Source: an uncultured Gammaproteobacteria bacterium
GTDB lineage: Bacteria > Patescibacteriota > Microgenomatia > UBA1406 > GWC2-37-13
NCBI GenBank assembly: GCA_964651235.1
Contig: CAZYXQ010000002.1
Coordinates: forward strand, 1-32,412
DNA length: 32,412 nucleotides
Direction: 5' to 3'
Shown: one piece after another, positions 9,210-32,412 of the stretch
How positions within the stretch are numbered: the first letter of the stretch is position 1
Layout: every line of letters begins with the position of its first letter
Notes under the pieces: model-generated
Database searches by the model: none
The model's input: the letters and a program-made list of their open reading frames with translations, nothing else
Told to the model about the DNA's origin: nothing
Translations under genes and position numbers: made by a program

Positions 9210-9533
9210 TTATTCAACAACTGCCATAACGTCTTTCTGCTCTACAAGAAGCCATTCTTCTCCACCTACTTTTATCTCATTCCCACCCCATTTTTTATAC
9301 ATTACCTTCTGACCGACCTTAACAACCATACTGGTGCATTTACACTTGTCATCACTCTCACAACAATCACAAGACTGACCTGGTCCAACAGCCATCACCT
9401 CACCCATTTGGGGTTTTTCTTTAACAGTATCAGGAAGTACGATACCTGAAGGAGTTACTTCTTCAGCTGAGAGTGGTTTGATAAGTACATAATCAAACAA
9501 AGGTTTTATTGAGTGACCCTTTTGTTTTGACAT
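9210..9533 (-). CDS. groS: Co-chaperonin GroES (Cpn10) with a Cys-rich insertion
   Basis: IKPLFDYVLIKP...SGIVLPDTVKEKPQMGEVMAVGPG...KVGQKVMYKKWGGNEIKVGGEEWLLVEQKDVMAVVE matches GroES. It sits immediately upstream of groEL on the same strand. Confidence 0.93.
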   Translation of the reverse strand: MSKQKGHSIKPLFDYVLIKPLSAEEVTPSGIVLPDTVKEKPQMGEVMAVGPGQSCDCCESDDKCKCTSMVVKVGQKVMYKKWGGNEIKVGGEEWLLVEQKDVMAVVE

Positions 9534-9614: not shown

Positions 9615-10685
9615 GTGGATAATTCGTCTGCTAATCAAACAACACAACAAAATAGCTTGTCAGAAATTGAAAAATTAAGAGTGCAGTTGCAGTCAGCTCA
9701 ACTACCTGCTAACCTTCATGACAAAGCTTTGCAACAGATTGAACGTATAAACCTTACCCTCAAATACGGGGGAAGTCTCGCACAACTTGATATTACAGCC
9801 AAATATATTGACTGGATTACCAATCTTCCCTGGGAAAAAAAATCAGAAGACACACTGGATATTACAAAAGCAAAAGCATTCCTCGACCAAAACCATTTTG
9901 GTCTTGAACCAATAAAAAAAAGAATATTGGAATTTCTTTCCGTCCTTGCATTACAGAAAAAAAATATTCCCGGTGGCACAATCCACGCTCCCAATTTGTT
10001 TTTTGTAGGTTTGGCAGGAACCGGTAAAACTACATTTGCAAAATCAATAGCAGAATCCATGGGAAGAAAATTAGTACGTATCCCGTTTGGTGGACTTTCT
10101 TCTGCAATGGACTTGAGGGGTCAATCCAAAACGTCACCTGAAGCAGAACCGGGAATGATTATGAGAGCTCTTCGAAGAGCCGGTACTAAAAATCCAGTCA
10201 TACTCCTTGATGAACTTGACCGTTGTACTCCTGAGTCCCGATCTGCCATCATGGGAGTCCTAATTGAACTTCTTGATCCGGGTCAAAATTCAAGTTATAC
10301 CGATTATTTTATTGATTATCCGTTTGACCTTTCACAGTGTCTTTTTGTAGCAACCGCAAATAATACAAATACGATTGCAACCGCGGTCATGGACCGGCTT
10401 GAACTTATCCAGATGCCATCCTATAACGATCAGGAAAAAATTGAGATCGGTAAACGGTTTGTCCTTCCGAAATATATGAAAGAATCTGGTCTTACACCGG
10501 AACAACTCCAAATACAGGATGGGGTATGGGCTAAGATGGTAAGACCATTAGGATTTGAACCTGGTATCCGTTCACTTGAAAGGGAAATTGAAGGAATAGT
10601 GAGAAAAACAGCATATCGAATCGTAGCAGGACAAAGTACTTCGGTGATCGTAACTGAGGAAAATATGAGAGAGTTTGTGGGTTAA
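9615..10685 (+). CDS. Lon-type AAA+ ATPase module without LAN N-domain and without protease domain
   Basis: LPWEKKSED...HFGLEPIKKRILEFLSV, Walker A GLAGTGKTT, Walker B VILLDELDR, MDRLELIQMPSY and GIRSLEREIEGIVRKTA are collinear with the Lon coiled-coil plus AAA+ region. The ORF ends (...ENMREFVG) where Lon's protease domain would begin. The start is a GTG, so the boundary is uncertain. Confidence 0.75.
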   Translation: MDNSSANQTTQQNSLSEIEKLRVQLQSAQLPANLHDKALQQIERINLTLKYGGSLAQLDITAKYIDWITNLPWEKKSEDTLDITKAKAFLDQNHFGLEPIKKRILEFLSVLALQKKNIPGGTIHAPNLFFVGLAGTGKTTFAKSIAESMGRKLVRIPFGGLSSAMDLRGQSKTSPEAEPGMIMRALRRAGTKNPVILLDELDRCTPESRSAIMGVLIELLDPGQNSSYTDYFIDYPFDLSQCLFVATANNTNTIATAVMDRLELIQMPSYNDQEKIEIGKRFVLPKYMKESGLTPEQLQIQDGVWAKMVRPLGFEPGIRSLEREIEGIVRKTAYRIVAGQSTSVIVTEENMREFVG

Positions 10686-11176: not shown

Positions 11177-14100
11177 TTAACGCACAAAGGTCGTACCAAC
11201 AATATGCATGTGATCATACCATGTGTTGGTTTTAGGAACTATTCCTGCTATTTCAATATTATTTCCGAAAAATGCGTTGACCCGGTCGCCTTTTTTGGTA
11301 AAAATTTTTTCGGCTATCATCATCTTCGCTTCATCGATTCCGACATACACAGAAACAGGATTTGAACGAGTTAACTTGTTTCTTGAAATATACGGTACAA
11401 GTATCGGGGGTATTTCATTTTCTATAACAAAAAACAATTTCAGTGAATTATCCGGTGCAATTTTTGCAAATAATATCCCTTCTGCCTTAACCGTATTGAA
11501 CGTATTATCATTCATGATATGGAACATATCAAGCATTGTGTTGGTTGGAGCCAAGATCCCGGATACTTTTATTTTCCGTATTCCAAAAAAATTATCGATT
11601 ATATCTCCCGGCTTTTTTATGAGTCCCTCACGAACCATCATCATTCCTTCCTCATACCCGACAACCATCTCATTGTCTTTAAGAGAGGGGGTTCCCATCT
11701 GCAACCTTAAACCTTGAAGATCTTCAGGAGTTGTCGCAATAAACAATTTCGGTGAATCTTTCAAAAATGCATTTTTGATTTGTGGTGATTTTAAAACAGC
11801 AGTTGCGATACGTTTTATATCGTTTGAAACGACTACCGTCCCCATACTACTCATCCCGGAGCTCACCTTCGCAAACGACACAAATAAAGTAAGGAAAATA
11901 ATCCCCATAAATAACGGAGCCGCAAGTGAAACATAATTTGTTTTCCTTGGTGAGAAGAATCGAAGAAGAAGTGAATTGGAAACTACCGAGATTGAAGAAA
12001 GAGCCATTGCTGCTCCTGCAAGTTCAGGCATAAGTACAAGACCAAAATATGATAACGCACGAGCCGCAATGGGAATACCAATAACGTTATAAAATAATGC
12101 AAAAAACATATTTTGTCTAATTTTTCCCATGGTTTCGCGAGACAAATCCATGGCATCATTCACGCTACTTAGATCATTTCTCATTAATACCACTCCCCCT
12201 GTTTCCATTGCCACATCCGCGGCTTTTCCCATGACTATTCCCAGATCTGCCGTCGCAAGAGCGGGAGCATCATTTACTCCATCCCCTACCATAGCAACCC
12301 GTTTTCCTTTCTGTTGCAATTTCCTAATTTTTTGTGCTTTATCCTGCGGAAGTACTCCTGCAATCACATGTTCTATGCCAACCTCTTGCGCAATAGCTTG
12401 GGCAGTACGTTCATTGTCACCTGTTATCATCCAGACTTCAATGTGACGATTTTTAAGTCGCTCAATGGCGGTTTTTGAACTATCTTTAATTGTGTCGGCA
12501 ACTGCAATGTATCCGATTATTCCTTTTTTATCTGCTAAAGACATAACAGTTTTTCCCATCGATTCAAGACGATGTAAGGCATTCTGATTATGATGAGAGA
12601 ATCCAATTTCTCTCATGAAAGAAATATTTCCAAAATAATATGTTTCAGCAGTAATTGTTCCCTCAATCCCTTTCCCCGGATAAGCTTTGAATAGGTTAAC
12701 TTCTTTTAATGTTACATTAAGAGTTTTTGCCTTTAAAAGAAGCGCCTCTGCAAGTGGATGTTCTGAATGCTTTTCAAGTGATGCTGCAATAGATACAAGA
12801 TTCGTTTCTGATTCGTTGCTTCTAACTATTAACATATCTGTCACGACAGGTTTTCCATGGGTTATGGTTCCTGTTTTATCAAACACAATAGTGTTGATTC
12901 GCTCCATTGCTTGAAGCGGTTCACCCCCCTTTATTAATATGCCATGCTCCGCTCCTTTTCCGGTCCCTACCATGATGGCGGTTGGCGTAGCTAGACCAAG
13001 CGCGCATGGACAAGCAATAACAATAACTGATGTAAACGCCATAAGAGCAAAAGAAAGAGTAGCGTGTAAAACGATAAACCAAACGAAAAATGTGAACATA
13101 GCGATAGTAATAACTATCGGAACAAAATAGGATGAGATTTTATCAGCAAAATCTTGTATGGGGGCTTTTGATCCCTGAGCATCCTCGACAAGTCGAACAA
13201 TATGCGACAATATCGTTTCATTTGAGGTTGCCGTTACCTTATATTCTATGCTTCCGTGTTTATTTATTGTACCCCCGATAACTTTTTCACCCATGTGTTT
13301 TTCAACGGGAATACTTTCTCCCGTTATCATAGATTCATCGACAGATGTATTTCCCTTCAATATTATTCCATCGATCGGAATGCGTTCACCCGGTCGCACC
13401 ATAACAACATCATTCTTTTGAACATCATCAATATGGACATCTTTATATTCTGTCCCAACAACCAATCGAGCTGATTTTTCCTGTAATCCCATGAGTTTTT
13501 CAATTGCGTGTGAAGTTTTTCCTTTTGCCTGATGTTCAAGAAGTTTTCCGAGAAGTACAAATGTAATGAGAAATGCTGCGGTTTCAAAATACAATTCAGG
13601 TATTTTTTCCCCTGCCAATCCTACCATTGTCTGATATGTATATATATACCAACCGTAATTGACAACGCTGTATATATATGCAACGGTGGTACCTATGGCA
13701 ATGAGACTATCCATATTGAATGATTTCATCCTTAAAGCCGCGAATGCGCCTTTATAAAACCCATTGCCTAATATAAATAAAACTGGTGTTGTTAAGATAA
13801 ATGATACGATTCCCATATAGGGGAATAGTAACTTTGCTCCCCGGAGAAAGGGAAAAAAATCAAAAATCATAAACACGAGCATCGGAAGACTTAGTAAGAT
13901 ACTTGCAATGAGTTGTCGTTTTTGAACGTTATATTCGTTTGCTTTCATTCGCTTTTCATTTTCACGATCTTCATTTGTCAACATCCGTGCATCATATCCG
14001 GCATTCTTCACAGCTTGGATTAATGTATTGGGATGTGTATTGGAAGATACAACAACAGAGGCTTTTTCAGCAGTAAAATTCACAGTTGCCTGTTCAACTC

Positions 14101-14191
14101 CTTCAACTTTCTGAAGAGACCGCTCAATAAGTGTTGCACATGCACTACAGTGCATACCTAATAGAGAAAGTTTTATTGTAGTTTTTGTCAT
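11177..14191 (-). CDS. copA: Cu(I)-exporting P1B-1-type ATPase (CopA) with an extra TM helix and a roughly 250-aa C-terminal extension
   Basis: N-terminal HMA domain (GMHCSACA), TGES, CPC (IACPCALGLATP), DKTGTIT, GDGVNDAP. TM signatures YNVIGIP and MALSSISV are typical of Cu(I) pumps. After the canonical end (LLLRFFSP) comes one more hydrophobic helix (YVSLAAPLFMGIIFLTLFVSFA) and a 240-aa domain containing an internal duplication. Confidence 0.92.
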   Translation of the reverse strand: MTKTTIKLSLLGMHCSACATLIERSLQKVEGVEQATVNFTAEKASVVVSSNTHPNTLIQAVKNAGYDARMLTNEDRENEKRMKANEYNVQKRQLIASILLSLPMLVFMIFDFFPFLRGAKLLFPYMGIVSFILTTPVLFILGNGFYKGAFAALRMKSFNMDSLIAIGTTVAYIYSVVNYGWYIYTYQTMVGLAGEKIPELYFETAAFLITFVLLGKLLEHQAKGKTSHAIEKLMGLQEKSARLVVGTEYKDVHIDDVQKNDVVMVRPGERIPIDGIILKGNTSVDESMITGESIPVEKHMGEKVIGGTINKHGSIEYKVTATSNETILSHIVRLVEDAQGSKAPIQDFADKISSYFVPIVITIAMFTFFVWFIVLHATLSFALMAFTSVIVIACPCALGLATPTAIMVGTGKGAEHGILIKGGEPLQAMERINTIVFDKTGTITHGKPVVTDMLIVRSNESETNLVSIAASLEKHSEHPLAEALLLKAKTLNVTLKEVNLFKAYPGKGIEGTITAETYYFGNISFMREIGFSHHNQNALHRLESMGKTVMSLADKKGIIGYIAVADTIKDSSKTAIERLKNRHIEVWMITGDNERTAQAIAQEVGIEHVIAGVLPQDKAQKIRKLQQKGKRVAMVGDGVNDAPALATADLGIVMGKAADVAMETGGVVLMRNDLSSVNDAMDLSRETMGKIRQNMFFALFYNVIGIPIAARALSYFGLVLMPELAGAAMALSSISVVSNSLLLRFFSPRKTNYVSLAAPLFMGIIFLTLFVSFAKVSSGMSSMGTVVVSNDIKRIATAVLKSPQIKNAFLKDSPKLFIATTPEDLQGLRLQMGTPSLKDNEMVVGYEEGMMMVREGLIKKPGDIIDNFFGIRKIKVSGILAPTNTMLDMFHIMNDNTFNTVKAEGILFAKIAPDNSLKLFFVIENEIPPILVPYISRNKLTRSNPVSVYVGIDEAKMMIAEKIFTKKGDRVNAFFGNNIEIAGIVPKTNTWYDHMHIVGTTFVR

Positions 14192-14204: not shown

Positions 14205-15560
14205 TTAGTCTTCTACGACATGAAAAACACCACTATACATCCCCATACTACAGCTGAAAGGAATATCTCCTGTCTCTTCAGGTGTAAATTCAAAGACCTG
14301 TTCTTTTTCAGTAAGTAACGTTCTGATATTATATTTCGGCAACATAAGACTACTTGCACACGAATATGGATATACTGTCTTTACAGCCCACTTAACAGGT
14401 AGACCCTTCTTAACAATAAATGAGTTTGGCTTATACCCGGTTTCATCTTGGACCATTCGTGCGACTTGATATCCATTTTCAGTAATAACATTCGTATTTG
14501 CTTCCTTTTGTATATCGATACCAGATAATCCAGCACTCACTTTCAACAGGTTTAGACCGTTTGTAATATTAAAAATTGCAAGAAATATTACAATAATTCC
14601 CGTAACTTTAAAAAAAAGTCCTGAAAATGAACCTTTCACAAAAGCCGATAAGCTGCCTATTCCTAACAATCCGGGCATCGTACCCAATGCAAAGACCGCC
14701 ATGGTAAGACCTCCTCTTATAAATGATCCTGTTGATACGGCATAAAGCTGTATAGCCTGAGTAAATCCGCAGGGAAGAAAAAAAGTTAACGCTCCTAATA
14801 TCATTGTTCCCAAATGGGAATATTGTTTTTGTCCCCCATCTGTTATCCCTAAGGACCGCGCGATACCTTTTGGAAGAGTGAAGGATATATCAGATAATTT
14901 TGGGATTATCTGTGTTAGTTGGACCCCAAGAAATATCATAAATAATCCTACTCCAACAGTAATAAAGCCGGTAATTGAATTTGATATTTCAAATACTGAT
15001 CCAAGAGCTCCTATCAGACCACCCAAAAGAAAGAAACCTATGATTCTTCCAATATTAAAAAATGTATGAGGTATGAGCATATTCCATCTCCCTACCAGTT
15101 CATTATTCTGCTTAAAGCGTGAAGATATCCCCAAAGTGAGTCCTCCGACTAAAGCCATACAGGTTGAAACACCCGCCGTAAGTCCAACCATAAAAACAAC
15201 CGGATAACTACCATATCCCTTCTGTCCAGTTATCGAAATATTAAATAATCCCAGTTCTTTCAGGATAAGAAATAATAATCCGGCAATAAAAAAAGCATAT
15301 ACTAGATCAAGGTAATCTTTAATATTTGAAGAAATAAATCCTTTCTTTTTTTCTAAACCAGTATCGTATCCTGCATTCCGGATGGCAGTATCAATTTCAT
15401 TTTGCGACATGGTTTTTGAACTATGATATATGGTTGCTAATCCTGTCTTATGACTAACATCAACTTTTTGAACACCTTCAATTTTCTTTAATTCATCTTC
15501 AATAAGTAATTCACAAGATTTACAATGCATTCCTTTTATCGGTACTGAAGTAGTATTCAT
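14205..15560 (-). CDS. Copper-handling membrane protein: N-terminal HMA domain, TauE/SafE- or DsbD-like polytopic core, and a C-terminal Cys/Met beta-rich (cupredoxin-like) domain
   Basis: GMHCKSCE HMA motif, about 7-8 hydrophobic helices, and a C-terminal roughly 100 aa ending ...PYSCASS...IPFSCSMGMYSGVFHVVED. It sits between csoR and copA and overlaps the csoR stop (15557-15560). Confidence 0.7.
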   Translation of the reverse strand: MNTTSVPIKGMHCKSCELLIEDELKKIEGVQKVDVSHKTGLATIYHSSKTMSQNEIDTAIRNAGYDTGLEKKKGFISSNIKDYLDLVYAFFIAGLLFLILKELGLFNISITGQKGYGSYPVVFMVGLTAGVSTCMALVGGLTLGISSRFKQNNELVGRWNMLIPHTFFNIGRIIGFFLLGGLIGALGSVFEISNSITGFITVGVGLFMIFLGVQLTQIIPKLSDISFTLPKGIARSLGITDGGQKQYSHLGTMILGALTFFLPCGFTQAIQLYAVSTGSFIRGGLTMAVFALGTMPGLLGIGSLSAFVKGSFSGLFFKVTGIIVIFLAIFNITNGLNLLKVSAGLSGIDIQKEANTNVITENGYQVARMVQDETGYKPNSFIVKKGLPVKWAVKTVYPYSCASSLMLPKYNIRTLLTEKEQVFEFTPEETGDIPFSCSMGMYSGVFHVVED

Positions 15561-15829
15561 TTGTTGTATAAGCTACTCACTTTTAATATTTCATCAATCA
15601 TCTGCTGTTTTCTTTTTTCATTGCTTGTAGACATCGCTTTTTTAAAACATGAATTTAAGTGATCTTCCATCAGCTGGTGGTGAGCGGACTTTAAAAGTCC
15701 GATCACCGCCAGATTCTGCTGCATGATATCAATGCAGTACTCGCCGTCCCCTGTCATTTGAATAATTTTTTCTATTAAACTTTTTGCCTTTTTATAACTT
15801 ACAAGTATTTTTTCCCTGTGAGTGTTCAT
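15557..15829 (-). CDS. csoR: CsoR-family Cu(I)-sensing transcriptional repressor
   Basis: 90-aa all-helical protein with the C-x24-H-x3-C ligand spacing (YCIDI...EDHLNSC) that characterises CsoR/RcnR (DUF156) sensors. It is the first gene of the copper operon. Confidence 0.85.
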   Translation of the reverse strand: MNTHREKILVSYKKAKSLIEKIIQMTGDGEYCIDIMQQNLAVIGLLKSAHHQLMEDHLNSCFKKAMSTSNEKRKQQMIDEILKVSSLYNK

Positions 15830-15844
15830 TGAATTAATGAATTA

Positions 15845-15875
15845 ATAATACCCATACCCTAGGTATAGGTATTAT
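15845..15875. promoter_or_regulatory. Candidate CsoR operator: 31-bp near-perfect palindrome
   Basis: ATAATACCCATACC-cta-GGTATAGGTATTAT has 14-bp arms with one mismatch (15853/15867) and a 3-bp spacer. It lies between a putative minus-strand promoter (TTGACT at 15900-15905, TATCCT at 15877-15882) and the csoR start (15829). Confidence 0.6.
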
Positions 15876-15935
15876 GAGGATATATGTTTAAAATAAAAAA
15901 GTCAAATGAAGAACTTGTATAATGTGTAATAATGT

Positions 15936-26439: not shown

Positions 26440-27651
26440 TCATTCATACCGAATCGCCTCCATCGGAGAAAGACTTGCGGCTTTTTTTGCAGGAAAAACG
26501 CCGAAAAAAATACCAATAATGGAAGATGTTGTCACCGCAATAATCATTGATGTTGTATCAATGATTGCGGGAAACACTTCCTGGATAAGGATTACTACTC
26601 CAAAAGCCAAACCCAGTCCTCCCAATCCTCCGATAAGGGACAATAATACGGACTCGGCTAAGAATTGGAATAAAATATCCCGTTCCGTTGCACCCAACGC
26701 CCTACGGATTCCGATCTCACGTATCCGCTCCGTCACTGAGACATACATAATATTCATGATTCCGATACCTCCCACGATAAGCGAAACCGCACCGATTGCA
26801 ACAAGTACCGAATTAAGAATCGCAAAAATTGAACTTATGGTTGATATAAATTCTTTTGAGTCTGCAATAGTAAAATCATCCTCTTTATACCGTTTTAAAA
26901 GAGTTTGTGATATTTTTTCTTTAATAACGGGAACGTCTGCTTCATTTCTTCCGCGTAAAAGCATACTTACAAATGTTTTATTTGGGTTATATACATAAGC
27001 TGTCTTATAAGGAATGTACACGAAACTATCAAAATCAGGCCCTCCGAAACCGCCACCGCCTTTTGATTTTAATATTCCGATTATCTTATAAGTTTGAGTA
27101 CCTTCTACCCTGATTTGTTTTCCAACAGCAAGGAGAGGATTACCATAGATTTTTTCCGCAATTTTTGGACCCATTACCACAACTTTGCTTCTTTTATCAA
27201 CATCGGTCTTATCAAACGATCTCCCGAATTCAATTTCTAAATTTCGGGCAGGAAATATGTCTTCGGAAGCTGCATAGAGTGAACCGTATTCTGCCTTCCC
27301 GTTTCCTTCAAACTTCATCGTTTTGGAATAAATTCCTACAGTATAAGCTGCTTCATCAATTTTTTTTAAATTAATGAGGTCTTTTTCGTCAAATTTTATT
27401 CCTCCAACAGCTCCTGCTGCACTAAACCCACCGCTTTGTCCGAATATTTTTCCCGGCAGCACAAATACCAAATTTGTTCCCAGGCTGTCAAATTGTTGTC
27501 TGATAAATTCCTTTAAGCCAAGACCAAACGCAAGAAGCAATACAACGGATGCAACTCCGATAAGAATTCCAAGTGAGGTCAAAAATGTCCTTAATTTATT
27601 ACGGTATAAATCCGCAAATGCTGAAATTAAAATAAAAAATAAATATTTCAT
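26440..27651 (-). CDS. ABC transporter permease, MacB/FtsX family (paralog 2)
   Basis: N-terminal TM, a roughly 220-aa extracytoplasmic domain (VVVMGPKIAEKIYG...QIRVEGTQTYKIIGILKSKGGGGFGG...), then a 3-TM FtsX module with GIGIMNIMYVSVTERIREIGIRRALGA. ATG 27651 (MKYLFF) aligns with the paralog's start. Confidence 0.88.
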   Translation of the reverse strand: MKYLFFILISAFADLYRNKLRTFLTSLGILIGVASVVLLLAFGLGLKEFIRQQFDSLGTNLVFVLPGKIFGQSGGFSAAGAVGGIKFDEKDLINLKKIDEAAYTVGIYSKTMKFEGNGKAEYGSLYAASEDIFPARNLEIEFGRSFDKTDVDKRSKVVVMGPKIAEKIYGNPLLAVGKQIRVEGTQTYKIIGILKSKGGGGFGGPDFDSFVYIPYKTAYVYNPNKTFVSMLLRGRNEADVPVIKEKISQTLLKRYKEDDFTIADSKEFISTISSIFAILNSVLVAIGAVSLIVGGIGIMNIMYVSVTERIREIGIRRALGATERDILFQFLAESVLLSLIGGLGGLGLAFGVVILIQEVFPAIIDTTSMIIAVTTSSIIGIFFGVFPAKKAASLSPMEAIRYE

Positions 27652-27672
27652 ACAGATATGAATCATACCAAA

Positions 27673-28875
27673 TTATTCGTAACGGATTGCATCAATCGGT
27701 GCAAGATCCGCTGCCTTTTTCGCTGGAAAAACGCCGAAAACAACTCCGATTATTGAAGATACACCAAGGGAAAGCATTATTGACACAGCATCAATATAAG
27801 CGGGGAAAAAGGGTTGTACCAAGGTTACAATAAGATATGCCAAAAACAATCCAACAACCCCGCCAAGAATGGAAAGCAGAACTGACTCTACTAAAAACTG
27901 GTAAAGAATGTCCTTACTTTGTGCACCCAGTGCACGCCTTATCCCGATTTCCCTGATTCGTTCTGATACCGTCACATACATTATATTCATAATTCCGATT
28001 CCACCCACTACAAGGGAAATCGCAGCTATTGCAACCAGTATTGCATTTAATACATTAAATATCTGCTCAATGGTTCCCATAATCTCAGTTTGATCAACTA
28101 CGGAGAACTGTTTATCATCATACCGCTTTAATAACTCTTGTTTAATATCCACCTTTAACCGTTCAACCGCTTCTTTTGATTGTGCTTTTACATACAGAGC
28201 AAAATATTTTTTTTCTGTATTAAATACATAGGATGCCGCGTTTGAGGTAAACACATGGGAATCCATATCAGACCCTCCCAATCCACCACCTCCTTTTGAT
28301 TTGTAAATTCCGATGATTTTGAAATTCTGCCCTTCTATCGTCACTGTCCTTCCGAGCGCATTTATGGTGTTATCAAACAGTTTTTCAGCAATCTTTGGAC
28401 TTATTACAATCGTCTTTGTTCTTTTATCGTTGTCTTTCCGTTCAAGAAGACGCCCTAATTCAACTTGTAAATTCATCACTGCATTAATGTCATTAGTTGA
28501 TGCAACTAGTTCTGCCTGTTCAGATTTGCCATTTGCCTCAATTTCAATCCCTGGTTTTGCAAAAACTGGAGCAATGATATCGCACCCTTTTATTCGTCCA
28601 ACCCTTTGGACATCCCTATCATCAAATTTAATTCCTCCAACCATGCCGGCTCCGCTTGTCATCGCTTTTTCATTTCCCGGCATGATATAGACAAGGTTTG
28701 CACCAAGACTGTCAAACTGATTTGAAATGTATCTCTTTAACCCCAAACCCAAAGCCATAAGAAGTACCACCGATAAAACCCCGATTAAAATCCCAAGAGA
28801 AGTGAGGAGTGTTCTTCCCTTGTTACGGGAAAAATCAAAAAAAGCAGATTTAAAAATGAATGATAGATATCTCAT
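27673..28875 (-). CDS. ABC transporter permease, MacB/FtsX family (paralog 1)
   Basis: Same architecture and motifs as the neighbouring gene (GIGIMNIMYVTVSERIREIGIRRALGA). ATGA overlap with the ATPase gene stop. Confidence 0.9.
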   Translation of the reverse strand: MRYLSFIFKSAFFDFSRNKGRTLLTSLGILIGVLSVVLLMALGLGLKRYISNQFDSLGANLVYIMPGNEKAMTSGAGMVGGIKFDDRDVQRVGRIKGCDIIAPVFAKPGIEIEANGKSEQAELVASTNDINAVMNLQVELGRLLERKDNDKRTKTIVISPKIAEKLFDNTINALGRTVTIEGQNFKIIGIYKSKGGGGLGGSDMDSHVFTSNAASYVFNTEKKYFALYVKAQSKEAVERLKVDIKQELLKRYDDKQFSVVDQTEIMGTIEQIFNVLNAILVAIAAISLVVGGIGIMNIMYVTVSERIREIGIRRALGAQSKDILYQFLVESVLLSILGGVVGLFLAYLIVTLVQPFFPAYIDAVSIMLSLGVSSIIGVVFGVFPAKKAADLAPIDAIRYE

Positions 28876-29549
28876 GAAACTACTTCACCATCACGAATTT
28901 GTATGACCCGTTTTGTTTCTTTTGCTACTGATTGGTCATGTGTCACAATAATTACGGTGATTTTTTCATCTCGGTTAAGTTCTTTTAATAATTTTAAAAT
29001 CTCTGATCCGCTTTTGGAATCAAGATTTCCTGTTGGCTCATCAGCAAGAATTAATGTTGGATTCATAATAAGTGCTCTTGCGATTGCAACGCGTTGTTGT
29101 TGCCCTCCTGATATTTTATTCGGATATGAATGTTCTTTTCCCAATAAACCAAACCTTTCCATCAGATAGAGAGCTTTTTCCTTAGGATCATACTTTAGTT
29201 TACGTCGGGCATAAATGCTAGGCAGCATAATATTTTCCAATATTGTCAGTTTGTTGATGAGATTAAATTGTTGAAATACAAAACCGACAAATTCATTTCT
29301 TAAAGTGGATATCTTGTCGTCTGATAAGAGTGACGTGTTTGTCCCCTGAATAAAAATATCGCCCCTTGTTGGTTTATCCAATAATCCAATGATATGCATT
29401 AGAGTTGATTTACCGCTTCCTGAAGGACCAATAATTGATGTTAATTCTCCTTCTTTTATTGTCACTGAAACATTTTTTAAGGCCTGAAAAAGTGTTTCTC
29501 CCATAAGATATTCCTTCCATGCTTTTTCAACCCTGATAATCTCACTCAT
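28872..29549 (-). CDS. ABC transporter ATP-binding protein (MacB/LolD-type)
   Basis: Walker A GPSGSGKST, signature LSGGQQQRVAIARAL, Walker B LILADEPTGNLD, H-loop VTHD. Confidence 0.93.
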   Translation of the reverse strand: MSEIIRVEKAWKEYLMGETLFQALKNVSVTIKEGELTSIIGPSGSGKSTLMHIIGLLDKPTRGDIFIQGTNTSLLSDDKISTLRNEFVGFVFQQFNLINKLTILENIMLPSIYARRKLKYDPKEKALYLMERFGLLGKEHSYPNKISGGQQQRVAIARALIMNPTLILADEPTGNLDSKSGSEILKLLKELNRDEKITVIIVTHDQSVAKETKRVIQIRDGEVVS

Positions 29550-29553
29550 GATA

Positions 29554-30597
29554 TTATTTGGAGTTTGTAATATAGATCTGATCGTTTTCTGAAAGACCTT
29601 TTAAGACTTCATATACCGTGTCAATTTCTGCTCCTACTTTAATATATGTTTTTACCGGTTTACCCATCACCTTTTTCTCAACATATGTTCCTTTCGCATC
29701 GGAAAGTACATAATTTGAGGGAATCGAGACTACATTGTATTTTTCACTTAAGACAAATGACACGTCTCCTGTCATGCCAAACCGATATTTACTTAAATTT
29801 TCTCCAAGGAGCTTCATTCTTCCTTCATATACGGTCCCTGTCTCTCCGCTTTTTGGAGTATAGGAAAGATATTCAATTTCTCCCATCACTTTTGAATCCG
29901 GAAATGAATCAAAAACCAACTCTCCTTTTTGTCCCTCTTTAAGTTTAACCACTTCTGTTTGGTCTGCAGTAAAGGAAAAATAAAGTGTTTCAGGGTTGAC
30001 TATCTCAAATTCGGCCCCGGTTGGAGTAATGTTTACCCCCGGAAACTTACTGTCTGCCCGGATCACTATACCTTCAATGGGAGAATATAAATATGAATAT
30101 TCACGGGCCAGATCTTGAAGCTCCACATCCAAAACAGAGTTTGTTAAATCATATTGTGCTTTTTCAAGAAGCCGCTTCATCGCATTACCGGCTTCTCTCG
30201 TAGGTTGATCGCCAACCCGGCTGTTATCATCGCCGGACTGATCGAAATCATTACGCTCCTTGGCATAATCATTTAAGGCTTTTTGCATCCGTTTTTGAAC
30301 ATCACGTTGATCCAAAGAGGCAACTCCTTGGTATTTTTTTACCCTGTCACCCTCCTTTACCCCAACCCAGGCCAGTCTTCCGGATGTTTGAAAGCGAAGT
30401 ATCACATGTTCATCGGCCTGTATCTCTCCGGAAAGAGATAGGGTCTCCCGAAGATCTTCTCTTTTTATGGTATACAACGATTCCTTTTCTTTTTTTGCTG
30501 CAACAGACTGTTGATTGTAGAAATAAATCCCAACTCCTACAATAAGAATAACCAAGACATACCATCTTTTTTTTATCACAGAAAAAACACTCTTCAT
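29554..30597 (-). CDS. HlyD/MacA-like membrane-fusion (periplasmic adaptor) protein
   Basis: N-terminal anchor WYVLVILIVGVGIYFY, a lipoyl-like segment (GEIQADEHVILRFQTSGRLAWVGVKEGDRVKK), a coiled-coil/charged hairpin, and beta-barrel segments (GMTGDVSFVL). It is the first gene of the ABC operon. ATG 30597 is preferred over TTG 30618. Confidence 0.8.
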   Translation of the reverse strand: MKSVFSVIKKRWYVLVILIVGVGIYFYNQQSVAAKKEKESLYTIKREDLRETLSLSGEIQADEHVILRFQTSGRLAWVGVKEGDRVKKYQGVASLDQRDVQKRMQKALNDYAKERNDFDQSGDDNSRVGDQPTREAGNAMKRLLEKAQYDLTNSVLDVELQDLAREYSYLYSPIEGIVIRADSKFPGVNITPTGAEFEIVNPETLYFSFTADQTEVVKLKEGQKGELVFDSFPDSKVMGEIEYLSYTPKSGETGTVYEGRMKLLGENLSKYRFGMTGDVSFVLSEKYNVVSIPSNYVLSDAKGTYVEKKVMGKPVKTYIKVGAEIDTVYEVLKGLSENDQIYITNSK

Positions 30598-30618
30598 ATA
30601 TTTATTATGACATAACAA

Positions 30619-31752
30619 TTATAAAAATGGGAGCCATTCCGAAATCGGCATGATGTTATAGATCAAGAAATTCCACGTATACATAAAAATCCCGAATAAG
30701 AGAATCCCAAATATTATTCTGAATTGTTTGGAGGTAAAAAATGACTCAAACGCTATTACTGAAAGAGGTAATAAGGGTAAACTATAACGGCTTATGTCAC
30801 GATGTTGTACGAATAAAGTGGCTGTAAAAAAGATCAAAGCGAAATAAAAAAAACTTTTGTATGTACTTGATTTCAACTGATACACTGCAAGTCCGTAAAA
30901 CGCAAAATACCATAATATGTCCTCCAACCAGGCAGTACCGACCCAGTTTTTTTGAAAATTAAATACTGAAAAAGGAAATACCAGATGAATATTGTCACCT
31001 GAATTAAAATATGCAAAAAAATCTCCCATTCTGAAATAGTAAAGTAAACATACTCCCACAAAACCGAGCGGTACGATTATGATTCCTATCCAGGAAATCT
31101 TTGCTTTTCTTGTTTTTGAAAATTCCTCGAGAAATGCACAAATATATGCAAGAAAAAGAAGGAGTCCGGGAGTTTTTGTTGCAGAGGCTAACCCACCCAA
31201 TAAACCTGAAAGAACATAATTCTTTTTTTCAAAAAAATAAAGGGATGTTAGGAGCAAAAACAAAAATAAGGTCTCAGGTGCGCCGACTGATCGCACAACA
31301 AGAAATCGAGGGAACATCATAAACACTACGGTTAATAAAACCGGATGATGTGTTAACTTAAACCGCTTGACAATATAAAAGAAAGCCAAACCCAATAATG
31401 TTGAAAACAGAAGCGTTATTCCGATCATGGATTTTAAATAACCGACAAACGGTGCAAATAACCCTATCAAAATCGGATACAGAGGGAGATGGGCAGCAAA
31501 ATATCTTCCGTCTCTTGGTAAAACACTATCCCTGTTTATCGTATCAAATTCTTTCAGGCCATATACCGTTTTTGCAGGAATGATATACAAAGGTCCGTCA
31601 AAATGTTTATATATATATGAAAAATTTGAGTCAGGAATATGCAACCCAATCCAATTCTCGGATCTGATCAAAAAAGGCAACCATACGAGAAGGGTGGTTG
31701 CGAGGATTACACATAATAAGGTAAAATAGGGAATGGCGCGTTTTACGTTCAT
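30619..31752 (-). CDS. Polytopic membrane protein, GT-C-like (tentative)
   Basis: About 10 hydrophobic helices. The motif FDGPLYIIPAKTVYG...YFAAHLPLYPILIG parallels the FDGVHYLNIA...FFPLYPLL motif of the 15936 gene. ATG 31752 (MNVKRAIPYF) is chosen because the track's extension to 31887 is antisense to the gene at 31733. Confidence 0.6.
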   Translation of the reverse strand: MNVKRAIPYFTLLCVILATTLLVWLPFLIRSENWIGLHIPDSNFSYIYKHFDGPLYIIPAKTVYGLKEFDTINRDSVLPRDGRYFAAHLPLYPILIGLFAPFVGYLKSMIGITLLFSTLLGLAFFYIVKRFKLTHHPVLLTVVFMMFPRFLVVRSVGAPETLFLFLLLTSLYFFEKKNYVLSGLLGGLASATKTPGLLLFLAYICAFLEEFSKTRKAKISWIGIIIVPLGFVGVCLLYYFRMGDFFAYFNSGDNIHLVFPFSVFNFQKNWVGTAWLEDILWYFAFYGLAVYQLKSSTYKSFFYFALIFFTATLFVQHRDISRYSLPLLPLSVIAFESFFTSKQFRIIFGILLFGIFMYTWNFLIYNIMPISEWLPFL

Positions 31753-32412
31753 AACTGAATGGGTTAAAAAAAACAAAGTTCTCAGTCTGATTATACTATG
31801 TCTGATATTTCTACGCATCTTTAGGCTTGCCGACTTTGCGATGTTTTTAGCTGACCAGGGGCGTGATGCTATCATCATCCGACGCATTGCACTCCTTCAG
31901 GACTTTCCTCTAATCGGTCCACCAAGCTCCATGGGTCAAGTATACTTAGGACCTTTTTTTTACTATCTGGTTGCGCCCTTTTTACTTCTTACATTATTTA
32001 ATCCAGTTGGTTTAGCTTTTGGGGTATCGATTTTATCCATAATCGGATTACTCTTTGCTTTTATCATTGTCTCAAGATCTGTTGACAAAAAAACAGGTTT
32101 CATATTTCTTCTTCTTATTACGTTTTCATATCAACTTATCTGGTTTGCCAGATTTTCCTGGAATCCGAATCTGTTACCAATTTTTTCTTTCTTTACCCTT
32201 TATTTTTTTTATCTCTCTCTGAAAACCCACAAAACACTGCATGCTTTAACCTACGGACTTTTGTTTGGTTTTTCGTTTCAGCTGCATCATTTAGCAGCAT
32301 TTCTTGTCGCACCTCTTGGTTTATGGTATGTGATTGAACTCCTGTCACAAAAAAACAAAAAACAGGTTTTTATCTCACCTTTTATCGCGCTTTACTCATT
32401 TCTGGTTGCTTC
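31733..32412 (+). CDS. ArnT/PMT-like GT-C glycosyltransferase, N-terminal part (3'-truncated by the window edge; absent from the ORF track)
   Basis: My own translation from ATG 31733 is open to the last base: MARFTFITEWVKKNKVLSLIILCLIFLRIFRLADFAMFLADQGRDAIIIRRIALLQDFPLIGPPSSMGQVYLGPFFYYLVAPF... The (F)L(A/G)DQGRD...GP.SS.G..YLGPFFYY pattern is typical of a subgroup of GT39/ArnT-like membrane glycosyltransferases. An upstream in-frame stop TAG lies at 31727. Confidence 0.7.
   Translation, partial: MARFTFITEWVKKNKVLSLIILCLIFLRIFRLADFAMFLADQGRDAIIIRRIALLQDFPLIGPPSSMGQVYLGPFFYYLVAPFLLLTLFNPVGLAFGVSILSIIGLLFAFIIVSRSVDKKTGFIFLLLITFSYQLIWFARFSWNPNLLPIFSFFTLYFFYLSLKTHKTLHALTYGLLFGFSFQLHHLAAFLVAPLGLWYVIELLSQKNKKQVFISPFIALYSFLVA

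Follow-up and report, generated by a model that had tools for sequence, protein, structure and literature searches.

A tandem Sabre-like domain, predicted to lie outside the cell, is coupled to the Cu(I)-ATPase CopA in Patescibacteria and DPANN archaea

To our knowledge, the exit of Cu(I) from the copper-transporting ATPase CopA, and the protein that accepts the ion, are known only for Gram-negative bacteria, in which the acceptor is CusF; we know of no exit-side acceptor for single-membrane bacteria or archaea. The CopA of Archaeoglobus fulgidus has a C-terminal metal-binding domain. CopA cores have eight transmembrane (TM) helices and a cytoplasmic C-terminus, and CopA from Escherichia coli hands Cu(I) to periplasmic CusF by docking, with no free release of the ion (PMC7558416). 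Here we describe a CopA with a different layout, encoded on the reverse strand of a 32,412-nucleotide (nt) stretch of Patescibacteria DNA (contig CAZYXQ010000002.1 of assembly GCA_964651235.1), which we refer to as the window. In this protein the canonical core is followed by a ninth TM helix and by two tandem modules, and we call the whole of this extension the tail. The predicted fold of the modules makes them remote relatives of the Sabre subdomain found in the periplasmic domains of MacB/LolC-type (type VII) ATP-binding cassette (ABC) transporters. The accessory is strictly coupled to CopA in evolution, being fused to it in Patescibacteria and encoded separately, as a single-pass protein next to copA, in DPANN archaea. 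No Pfam or NCBIfam model for the tail family was found, nor was any published description in the limited literature searched, so that the accessory and its coupling to CopA in these two groups are newly described here.

The copA open reading frame (ORF) is a single unbroken frame of 1004 amino acids (aa), and its core is that of a P1B-1 ATPase. Pfam matches HMA at residues 12-67 (E 1.5e-14), E1-E2_ATPase at residues 236-416 (2.3e-59), and Hydrolase at residues 432-649 (1.8e-38). The CxxC-bearing HMA domain and the A, P, and N domains that define the family are all found, with MHCSAC, DKTGTIT, and GDGVNDAP in the translation, and the TM signature for Cu(I) is complete, with CPC in M4 (ACPCALGLATP), YN in M5 (FYNVIGIP), and MxxSS in M6 (MALSSISVVSNS). 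Its closest relatives of known structure are Cu-ATPases without exception (E 1e-157 to 1e-173). Every solved Cu-ATPase stops aligning at residue 744-748, with A. fulgidus CopA (3j09) covering query residues 9-748 and Legionella pneumophila CopA (3rfu) covering query residues 85-744, which agrees with the end of the canonical ATPase that an earlier note on this DNA had placed at ...SNSLLLRFFSP. The pump itself is ordinary and the protein is a variant architecture of its family: rather than stopping at eight TM helices with both termini in the cytoplasm, it continues beyond the core with a helix at residues 753-774 and a further 230 aa, the accessory being encoded in the last 770 nt of copA.

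The ninth helix that the earlier note had proposed, at 11874-11936, is borne out by a hydropathy peak of 2.28 at 11870-11935. A cytoplasmic junction rich in arginine and lysine, RFFSPRKTNY, precedes it, and the sequence between M6 and TM9 is kept in the fused homologues P0001, P0002, P0013, P0015, and P0017. Because a CopA core has eight TM helices and a cytoplasmic C-terminus, and a ninth helix follows, the rest of the tail is predicted to be outside the cell; the outward C-terminal domain that had been suggested is thus supported, as a prediction from the helix count. The CopA of A. fulgidus likewise has an accessory at the C-terminus of a Cu-ATPase, but that accessory is cytoplasmic and directly follows M6, whereas the outer domain described here comes after an extra TM helix and is predicted to be extracytoplasmic. 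An AlphaFold2 (AF2) model of the tail, built with 51 homologues, has a mean predicted local distance difference test score (pLDDT) of 92.5 and a predicted TM-score (pTM) of 0.80. It consists of a long helix, formed by TM9 and a short stalk, a linker, and two modules that each comprise a β-hairpin followed by a β-α-β-β-α-β arrangement. The pLDDT falls to 64 in the block of tail residues 31-40 within the linker, elsewhere exceeding 90, and a short helix occupies tail residues 42-52. Module 2 modeled alone reaches pLDDT 92.9 and pTM 0.86.

The two modules arose as a duplicated unit that is larger than had been thought. The earlier note had described two copies of a unit of roughly 55 aa. The duplication itself holds: the two repeat stretches are 42% identical over 50 aa, and their Smith-Waterman score lies 15.8 standard deviations above the mean of 1000 shuffles, none of which reaches it. 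The second copy sits exactly at the 11186-11350 given for it, and the first is at 11498-11668, about 7 nt from the 11505-11675 proposed. The unit size does not hold. When the family profiles of module 1 (residues ~803-894) and module 2 (residues ~905-999) are compared, they align over 91 columns with an HHalign probability of 99.8% (E 1.7e-30). The repeat unit therefore takes in an upstream β-hairpin with a repeated (P)KLF motif and measures about 95-105 aa, and the domain is made of two tandem modules of ~100 aa. The positions of these and other features are collected in Table 1.

Table 1. Features of the copA operon and of the CopA tail in the window.
Feature	Position	Strand	Remarks
Whole copA gene	11177..14191	(-)	1004 codons, stop 11177-11179; Cu(I) P1B-1 ATPase with TM9 and tandem Sabre-like outer domain (predicted)
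Canonical CopA core, residues 1-748	11948..14191	(-)	HMA domain, 8 TM helices, A/P/N domains; ends ...SNSLLLRFFSP
Extra (ninth) TM helix, residues 753-774, YVSLAAPLFMGIIFLTLFVSFA	11870..11935	(-)	Mean Kyte-Doolittle 2.28; AF2 helix at tail residues 5-33
Stalk end, flexible low-confidence linker, and short helix, residues 775-802	11786..11869	(-)	From the AF2 model
Sabre-like module 1, residues 803-894	11510..11785	(-)	Conserved E848, M851, M852, D888, H891
Sabre-like module 2, residues 895-1004	11180..11509	(-)	Conserved E954, M957, M958, D993, H996
HMA-DsbD_2-CupA-like protein, 451 aa	14205..15560	(-)	Pfam HMA, DsbD_2, Cupredoxin_1
CsoR-family copper-responsive repressor, first operon gene	15557..15829	(-)	Pfam Trns_repr_metal 5.2e-14; 4-nt overlap with next gene
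14-nt inverted repeat ATAATACCCATACC / GGTATAGGTATTAT upstream of csoR	15845..15875	.	93% complementary, 3-nt spacer

A word-indexed search with the tail returned three fragments only, a profile search returned 51 proteins, and an exhaustive HMMER search of 1.84 billion cluster representatives returned 192 matches at E<=1e-3. At least 39 proteins of the family have the last TM helices of CopA N-terminal to the domain, and seven are full-length fusions of 954-1125 aa with HMA, E1-E2, and Hydrolase domains. Among the best 150 of the 192 HMMER matches, 10 were checked and are P-type ATPase fusions, and none has a length typical of a MacB/FtsX permease, a statement about protein lengths rather than domain content. 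One apparent member, P0178 (5419 aa with 19 matched stretches), is a glutamate-rich repeat protein without the motifs of the family and was discarded as a compositional false positive. A scan of GTDB with a 4-sequence alignment, using one genome per species, recovered 40 loci. The domain is fused in frame with a P-type ATPase in 34 of them (32 under genetic code 11 and 2 under code 25); five of the other six are archaeal, with a separate gene adjoining copA, and one (L043) is unresolved. In the two code 25 loci, L037 and L045, the CopA-tail ORF stays open only with UGA as a sense codon, consistent with the recoding of SR1/Gracilibacteria.

Around 64 family members stand alone, each 250-280 aa long with one TM helix, at the N-terminus, and come from sources named as Woesearchaeota, Nanoarchaeia, and Altiarchaeota. 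All six of the stand-alone loci that were examined have a copA of normal length (729-760 aa) nearby. The gene directly adjoins copA in five of the six, with a gap of 3-7 nt in two, and in L007 a Cupredoxin_1 gene lies between; at L010 the neighboring CopA, which is shortened, is 49% identical to that of the window. Taken over all loci outside the window, the partner is CopA in 45 of 46, the other being L043. With the stand-alone gene beside copA in 11 of 11 archaeal loci, the domain is therefore a dedicated partner of CopA. The accessory is a property of these clades, common in Patescibacteria and DPANN, and not a peculiarity of the window.

Some members and loci have features of their own. 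P0160, a 638-aa fragment of a fused CopA with higher GC content, has degenerate tandem motifs followed by an extension of ~260 aa that contains FGHAVIV...VMHTHPM and has no Pfam match, and this extension is possibly a further extracytoplasmic metal-binding domain. The archaeal loci L002 (1-7000) and L008 are copper islands with multicopper-oxidase genes, several Cupredoxin_1 genes, HMA chaperones, ArsR/TrmB regulators, DUF302, and DUF5676, along with a second P-type ATPase bearing an HMBD domain. Many contigs that bear this operon, which is typically of Patescibacteria type (L011/L001, L014, L016, L021, L024-L026, L028, L029, L031, L041, and L049) are titled "uncultured Gammaproteobacteria" or "Bdellovibrionales", and L007, titled Acidobacteriota, has an ABCE1 gene (Fer4_RLI) of archaeal/eukaryotic type. 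The titles of these records are probably placeholders or wrong taxonomy.

The relationship of the modules to Sabre subdomains emerges mainly at the level of fold. In a Foldseek search of the PDB with the whole tail, the first 21 matches are all periplasmic domains of LolC, LolE, MacB, or YbbP. Their scores are weak (E ~1e-2, TMq ~0.26), as expected if only part of the query matches. With module 2 as the query, the first 10 matches are all LolC or LolE (TMq 0.48-0.58, probability 0.80-1.00, best E 1.2e-3), after which there is an abrupt drop to unrelated proteins with probability 0.14 and TMq 0.23. Pfam MacB_PCD (PF12704) matches 8 of 52 family members; two of them, P0051 at 30.3 bits and P0023 at 28.3 bits, pass its curated cut-off of 27 bits, and one of the matches takes in the TM helix of the member, aligned to TM1 of MacB. 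An HHalign alignment that is weak, and was used for residue mapping only, places a module on residues 106-223 of an FtsX-type permease encoded in the window, and these correspond to residues ~362-475 of MacB from Aggregatibacter actinomycetemcomitans. In MacB the Sabre subdomain spans residues 347-465 and the Porter subdomain residues 306-346 and 466-503 (PMC5985334). This mapping gives a weak indication that the modules correspond essentially to Sabre and not to Porter, and for module 2 the Sabre fold is also what Foldseek finds. No structure of the extracellular domain of FtsX, which is Porter-only, is among the Foldseek matches of the whole tail or of module 2, consistent with the Sabre mapping because FtsX keeps Porter and largely lacks Sabre (PMC5985334). 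The resemblance to MacB, LolC/E, and FtsX outer domains claimed in the earlier note thus survives at the level of fold for MacB and LolC/E, with the FtsX part falling away.

That claim had been drawn from a sequence pattern said to be common to the tail and the FtsX-type permeases of the window, and this similarity proved not to be significant. When module hidden Markov models (HMMs) were run against all ORFs of the window, the MacB_PCD/FtsX permeases at 26440-27666 and 27673-28875 scored no better than unrelated proteins, and HHalign comparison of the family with a profile built from 121 homologues of an FtsX-type permease in the window gave E values of 0.01-0.08 and probabilities below 4%. 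The permeases belong to a MacAB-like cluster at 26440-31887 on the reverse strand, in a Patescibacteria genome that is apparently single-membrane; the cluster encodes a 422-aa protein without a Pfam match, an HlyD-type adaptor, an ABC ATPase, and the two permeases with MacB_PCD and FtsX domains.

By prediction, the modules resemble the Sabre subdomains within PF12704 (LolC/LolE, MacB, and YbbP), which supply their only significant fold matches, in being α/β domains of ~100-110 aa that lie outside the membrane directly after a TM helix, and the two groups share the skeleton V-x-G-x-x-x-A...G-D...V-x-G-I...D. In contrast to the PF12704 proteins, the tail has two Sabre-like modules in tandem and no detectable Porter subdomain. 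It has one anchoring helix, whereas MacB_PCD sits between TM1 and TM2 of a four-TM FtsX permease, and no FtsX domain (PF02687) was found in the window CopA or in the members scanned against Pfam. The partner of the tail is a P-type ATPase and that of PF12704 an ABC ATPase. The tail family also has invariant E-A-x-M-M, F-F-G, T-x-T, and D-x-x-H motifs that distinguish it from PF12704, and the tail of the window itself lies below Pfam detection.

These motifs recur in both modules as G-x-x-E-A-x-M-M on a helix, F-F-G, and T-x-T-x-x-D-x-x-H before the last strand, and are absent from the MacB_PCD family. Across 149 two-module proteins, conservation in module 1 and module 2, respectively, is 95% and 94% for the glutamate, 88% and 73% for the first methionine, 97% and 95% for the second, 97% and 91% for the threonine, 99% and 100% for the aspartate, and 93% and 90% for the histidine. 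The outer domains are essentially free of cysteine (0.05%) and contain 4.1% methionine, a composition that fits an oxidizing extracytoplasmic location, as predicted, and copper chemistry based on methionine and histidine, for which CusF is a precedent (PMC7558416).

In the window, copA is the last gene of an operon with the order csoR, a 451-aa membrane protein, and copA, and L001 has the same order. The 451-aa protein has a cytoplasmic N-terminal HMA domain without a signal peptide and then seven hydrophobic segments. The first of these is extra, and the other six make up a DsbD_2/CcdA-like core that retains its TM cysteines (GVSTCMAL and FLPCGF). Its C-terminal domain is homologous with the metal-binding cupredoxin domain of Streptococcus pneumoniae CopA (4f2f, E 6.5e-11) and with S. 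pneumoniae CupA (4f2e/2mry, E 1.1e-10), with both cysteines and the CxMxM motif aligned. From the distribution of charge in its loops, the C-terminus should be outside. The earlier note's description of a neighboring gene with an outward Cys/Met domain is thus supported, the domain being a CupA homologue with C...CxMxM that is outward by prediction. As in S. pneumoniae, which has a CupA/CopA pair, a cupredoxin with a bridging cysteine and CxMxM is encoded in a cop operon with a copper-sensing repressor; the N-terminus of the window CopA is an ordinary HMA domain, unlike that of S. pneumoniae CopA. Of 51 loci scanned, the window included, 33 have an ORF with C...CxMxM within their flanks. In fused bacterial loci this ORF is upstream of copA where present; among the archaea it mostly encodes a separate protein of ~130-260 aa and in some cases an HMA-DsbD_2 fusion. 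None of 194 family proteins fuses the Sabre-like tandem to a CupA-like domain.

We give roughly even weight to the proposal that the tail is an exit-side Cu(I) acceptor or docking platform that would transfer exported Cu(I) onward with no free release, and the structural and evolutionary description above is much firmer than this functional reading. The earlier note's suggestion that exported Cu(I) is passed onward at the cell surface is thus plausible. In the proposal, the tethered tandem domain would sit over the outer face of CopA, where it would serve both as receptor and as docking platform. As Cu(I) exits the pump, each module would bind it at the near-invariant E-A-x-M-M / D-x-x-H motif, a candidate site that would be surface-exposed and would rely on the methionine and histidine ligation usual for Cu(I) sites outside the cytoplasm. 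The modules could also, or alternatively, dock the outward CupA-like domain of the neighboring HMA-DsbD_2 protein, so that Cu(I) would be passed on rather than freed at the membrane surface of a single-membrane cell. Such docking would parallel that of LolA on LolC and MacA on MacB: the LolC periplasmic domain, which binds LolA, is represented by 6f3z among the Foldseek matches of the whole tail, and MacA contacts the Sabre subdomain of MacB (PMC5985334). As with E. coli CopA and CusF, a P1B-ATPase would pass Cu(I) by docking to an extracytoplasmic Met/His acceptor. CusF, however, is soluble, has an OB fold, belongs to a cell with two membranes, and feeds CusCBA, whereas the tail family has another fold, different also from the Ig-like fold of CopC, and occurs in single-membrane organisms. 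The candidate acceptor also differs from CusF in being covalently tethered, or membrane-anchored in archaea, and its copper binding is a proposal drawn from the conserved residues and the absence of cysteine.

A wider scheme, which we regard as possible and put forward only tentatively, is that Patescibacteria and DPANN, as ultra-small prokaryotes with one membrane, share a dedicated cell-surface relay, in which Cu(I) would move from CopA to the tandem Sabre-like Met/His sites and on to an outward CupA-like cupredoxin whose cysteines would be kept reduced by the CcdA/DsbD-like core fused to it. If true, this scheme would add the first exit-side copper acceptor system to be described in cells that lack a periplasm, and the first case in which a P-type pump makes use of a type VII ABC Sabre fold. 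The 451-aa protein resembles DsbD/ScsB in layout, pairing a core that transfers reductant with a redox or metal domain that faces outward, and by this analogy it could maintain the reduced state of an extracellular site that binds Cu(I) or reduces Cu(II). The family offers a concrete acceptor candidate, fused to or near copA in two domains of life, with a confident model, a small set of invariant residues (Met, His, Asp, and Glu), and a recurrent CupA-like partner. It also indicates that a Sabre module is able to exist without Porter or an FtsX permease and to be recruited by another class of pump, which bears on the general role of Sabre subdomains, and it provides an annotation for ~190 clusters of "hypothetical" proteins and for unannotated CopA tails.

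Several observations weigh against the Sabre assignment and the acceptor proposal. The alignments behind the Sabre assignment are weak: residues 749-1004 of the window CopA have no Pfam match at E<=1 and no NCBIfam match, the HHalign probability against the narrow MacB profile stays below 4%, and the family profile searched against PDB sequences gives only chance-level matches such as Myc and RPB5. The E/M/M and D/H residues are a candidate copper site defined by sequence conservation, and the glycine, the alanine, the second methionine, the G-D pair, and the aspartate coincide with structural positions of MacB_PCD, so that the conserved positions shared with that consensus may be purely structural. 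S. pneumoniae CupA works on the cytoplasmic side (PMC7558416), in contrast to the CupA-like domain of the window, which follows seven hydrophobic segments and whose predicted outward placement comes from that segment count and the positive-inside rule. Finally, 18 of the 51 loci have no CxMxM ORF within their flanks, which are short in many cases.

Part of this evidence would be met equally by a scaffold without any metal site, in which the modules only recruit a partner to the pump, and the conserved motif would be a protein-protein interface or structural core. Such a partner might be another CopA protomer, a protein of the S-layer or cell surface, or the CupA-like cupredoxin. Known Sabre subdomains bind partners in this manner, MacA on MacB (PMC5985334) and LolA on LolC, the best fold match, and to this can be added the CupA-like ORF in 33 of 51 loci and the several conserved positions that fall on structural positions of MacB_PCD. 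We nevertheless consider a pure scaffold less likely. Met, His, Asp, and Glu are nearly invariant in both modules, through bacteria and archaea, to a degree beyond that of the MacB_PCD family itself, and these residues are the typical ligand chemistry of extracytoplasmic copper sites; a partner, moreover, is not always present within the flanks.

An exit-side acceptor or docking platform can also be set against the function suggested by the earlier note, a mechanotransmission-type outer domain. By that account, movement of M6 during the E1/E2 cycle would be carried through TM9 to the outer domain, which would perform work on a substrate outside. The tail follows M6 closely, with TM9 only ~5 residues beyond it, and its fold family is that of the mechanotransmission ABC transporters. 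In MacB, though, force is transmitted by Porter and two stalk helices (PMC5985334), which by the weak residue mapping seem to be absent here. According to the predicted model and that weak alignment, the tail has a single TM helix, a linker of low pLDDT, and Sabre-mapped modules, and in DPANN the domain is a protein with its own anchor, encoded beside a CopA of normal length (729-760 aa), which means that a covalent link to the pump can be dispensed with. With one helix, a flexible linker between TM9 and the domain, and a separately encoded archaeal form, the tail is unlikely to be a MacB-style mechanotransmission device, and we give this account very little credence; the claim is not borne out. 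Less credible still, to the point of being negligible, is that the tail is an artefact or decaying remnant, produced by a lost stop codon or misassembly or left over as a functionless fragment of a MacB-type permease. The lack of Pfam and NCBIfam matches for the window tail would suit such an origin, as would the relative L001, in which the protein looks split between genes of 722 aa and 299 aa, but a stretch of N in the L001 assembly, translated as XXXX, accounts for the split. The same in-frame fusion is present in 34 of 40 species-representative loci, that is, in 34 independent species representatives, the junction and both modules are kept at the protein level, and the AF2 models are very confident. 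From these conservation data, a fusion artefact was rejected, and the single long ORF is not an artefact joining two genes.

The inverted repeat upstream of csoR (Table 1) lies between -35/-10-like hexamers (15905..15877) and the csoR start codon, and this position makes it a candidate operator through which CsoR would control the csoR / HMA-DsbD_2-CupA-like / copA operon. Two further genes of the window have unusual features. A 356-aa protein encoded at 9615-10685 on the forward strand has AAA and Lon_lid domains without a Lon protease domain, forming a lone Lon-like ATPase module. A GroES homologue of 107 aa, encoded at 9210-9533 on the reverse strand, has a cysteine-rich insert, GQSCDCCESDDKCKCTS, that is unusual for co-chaperonins and suggests a metal-binding loop.

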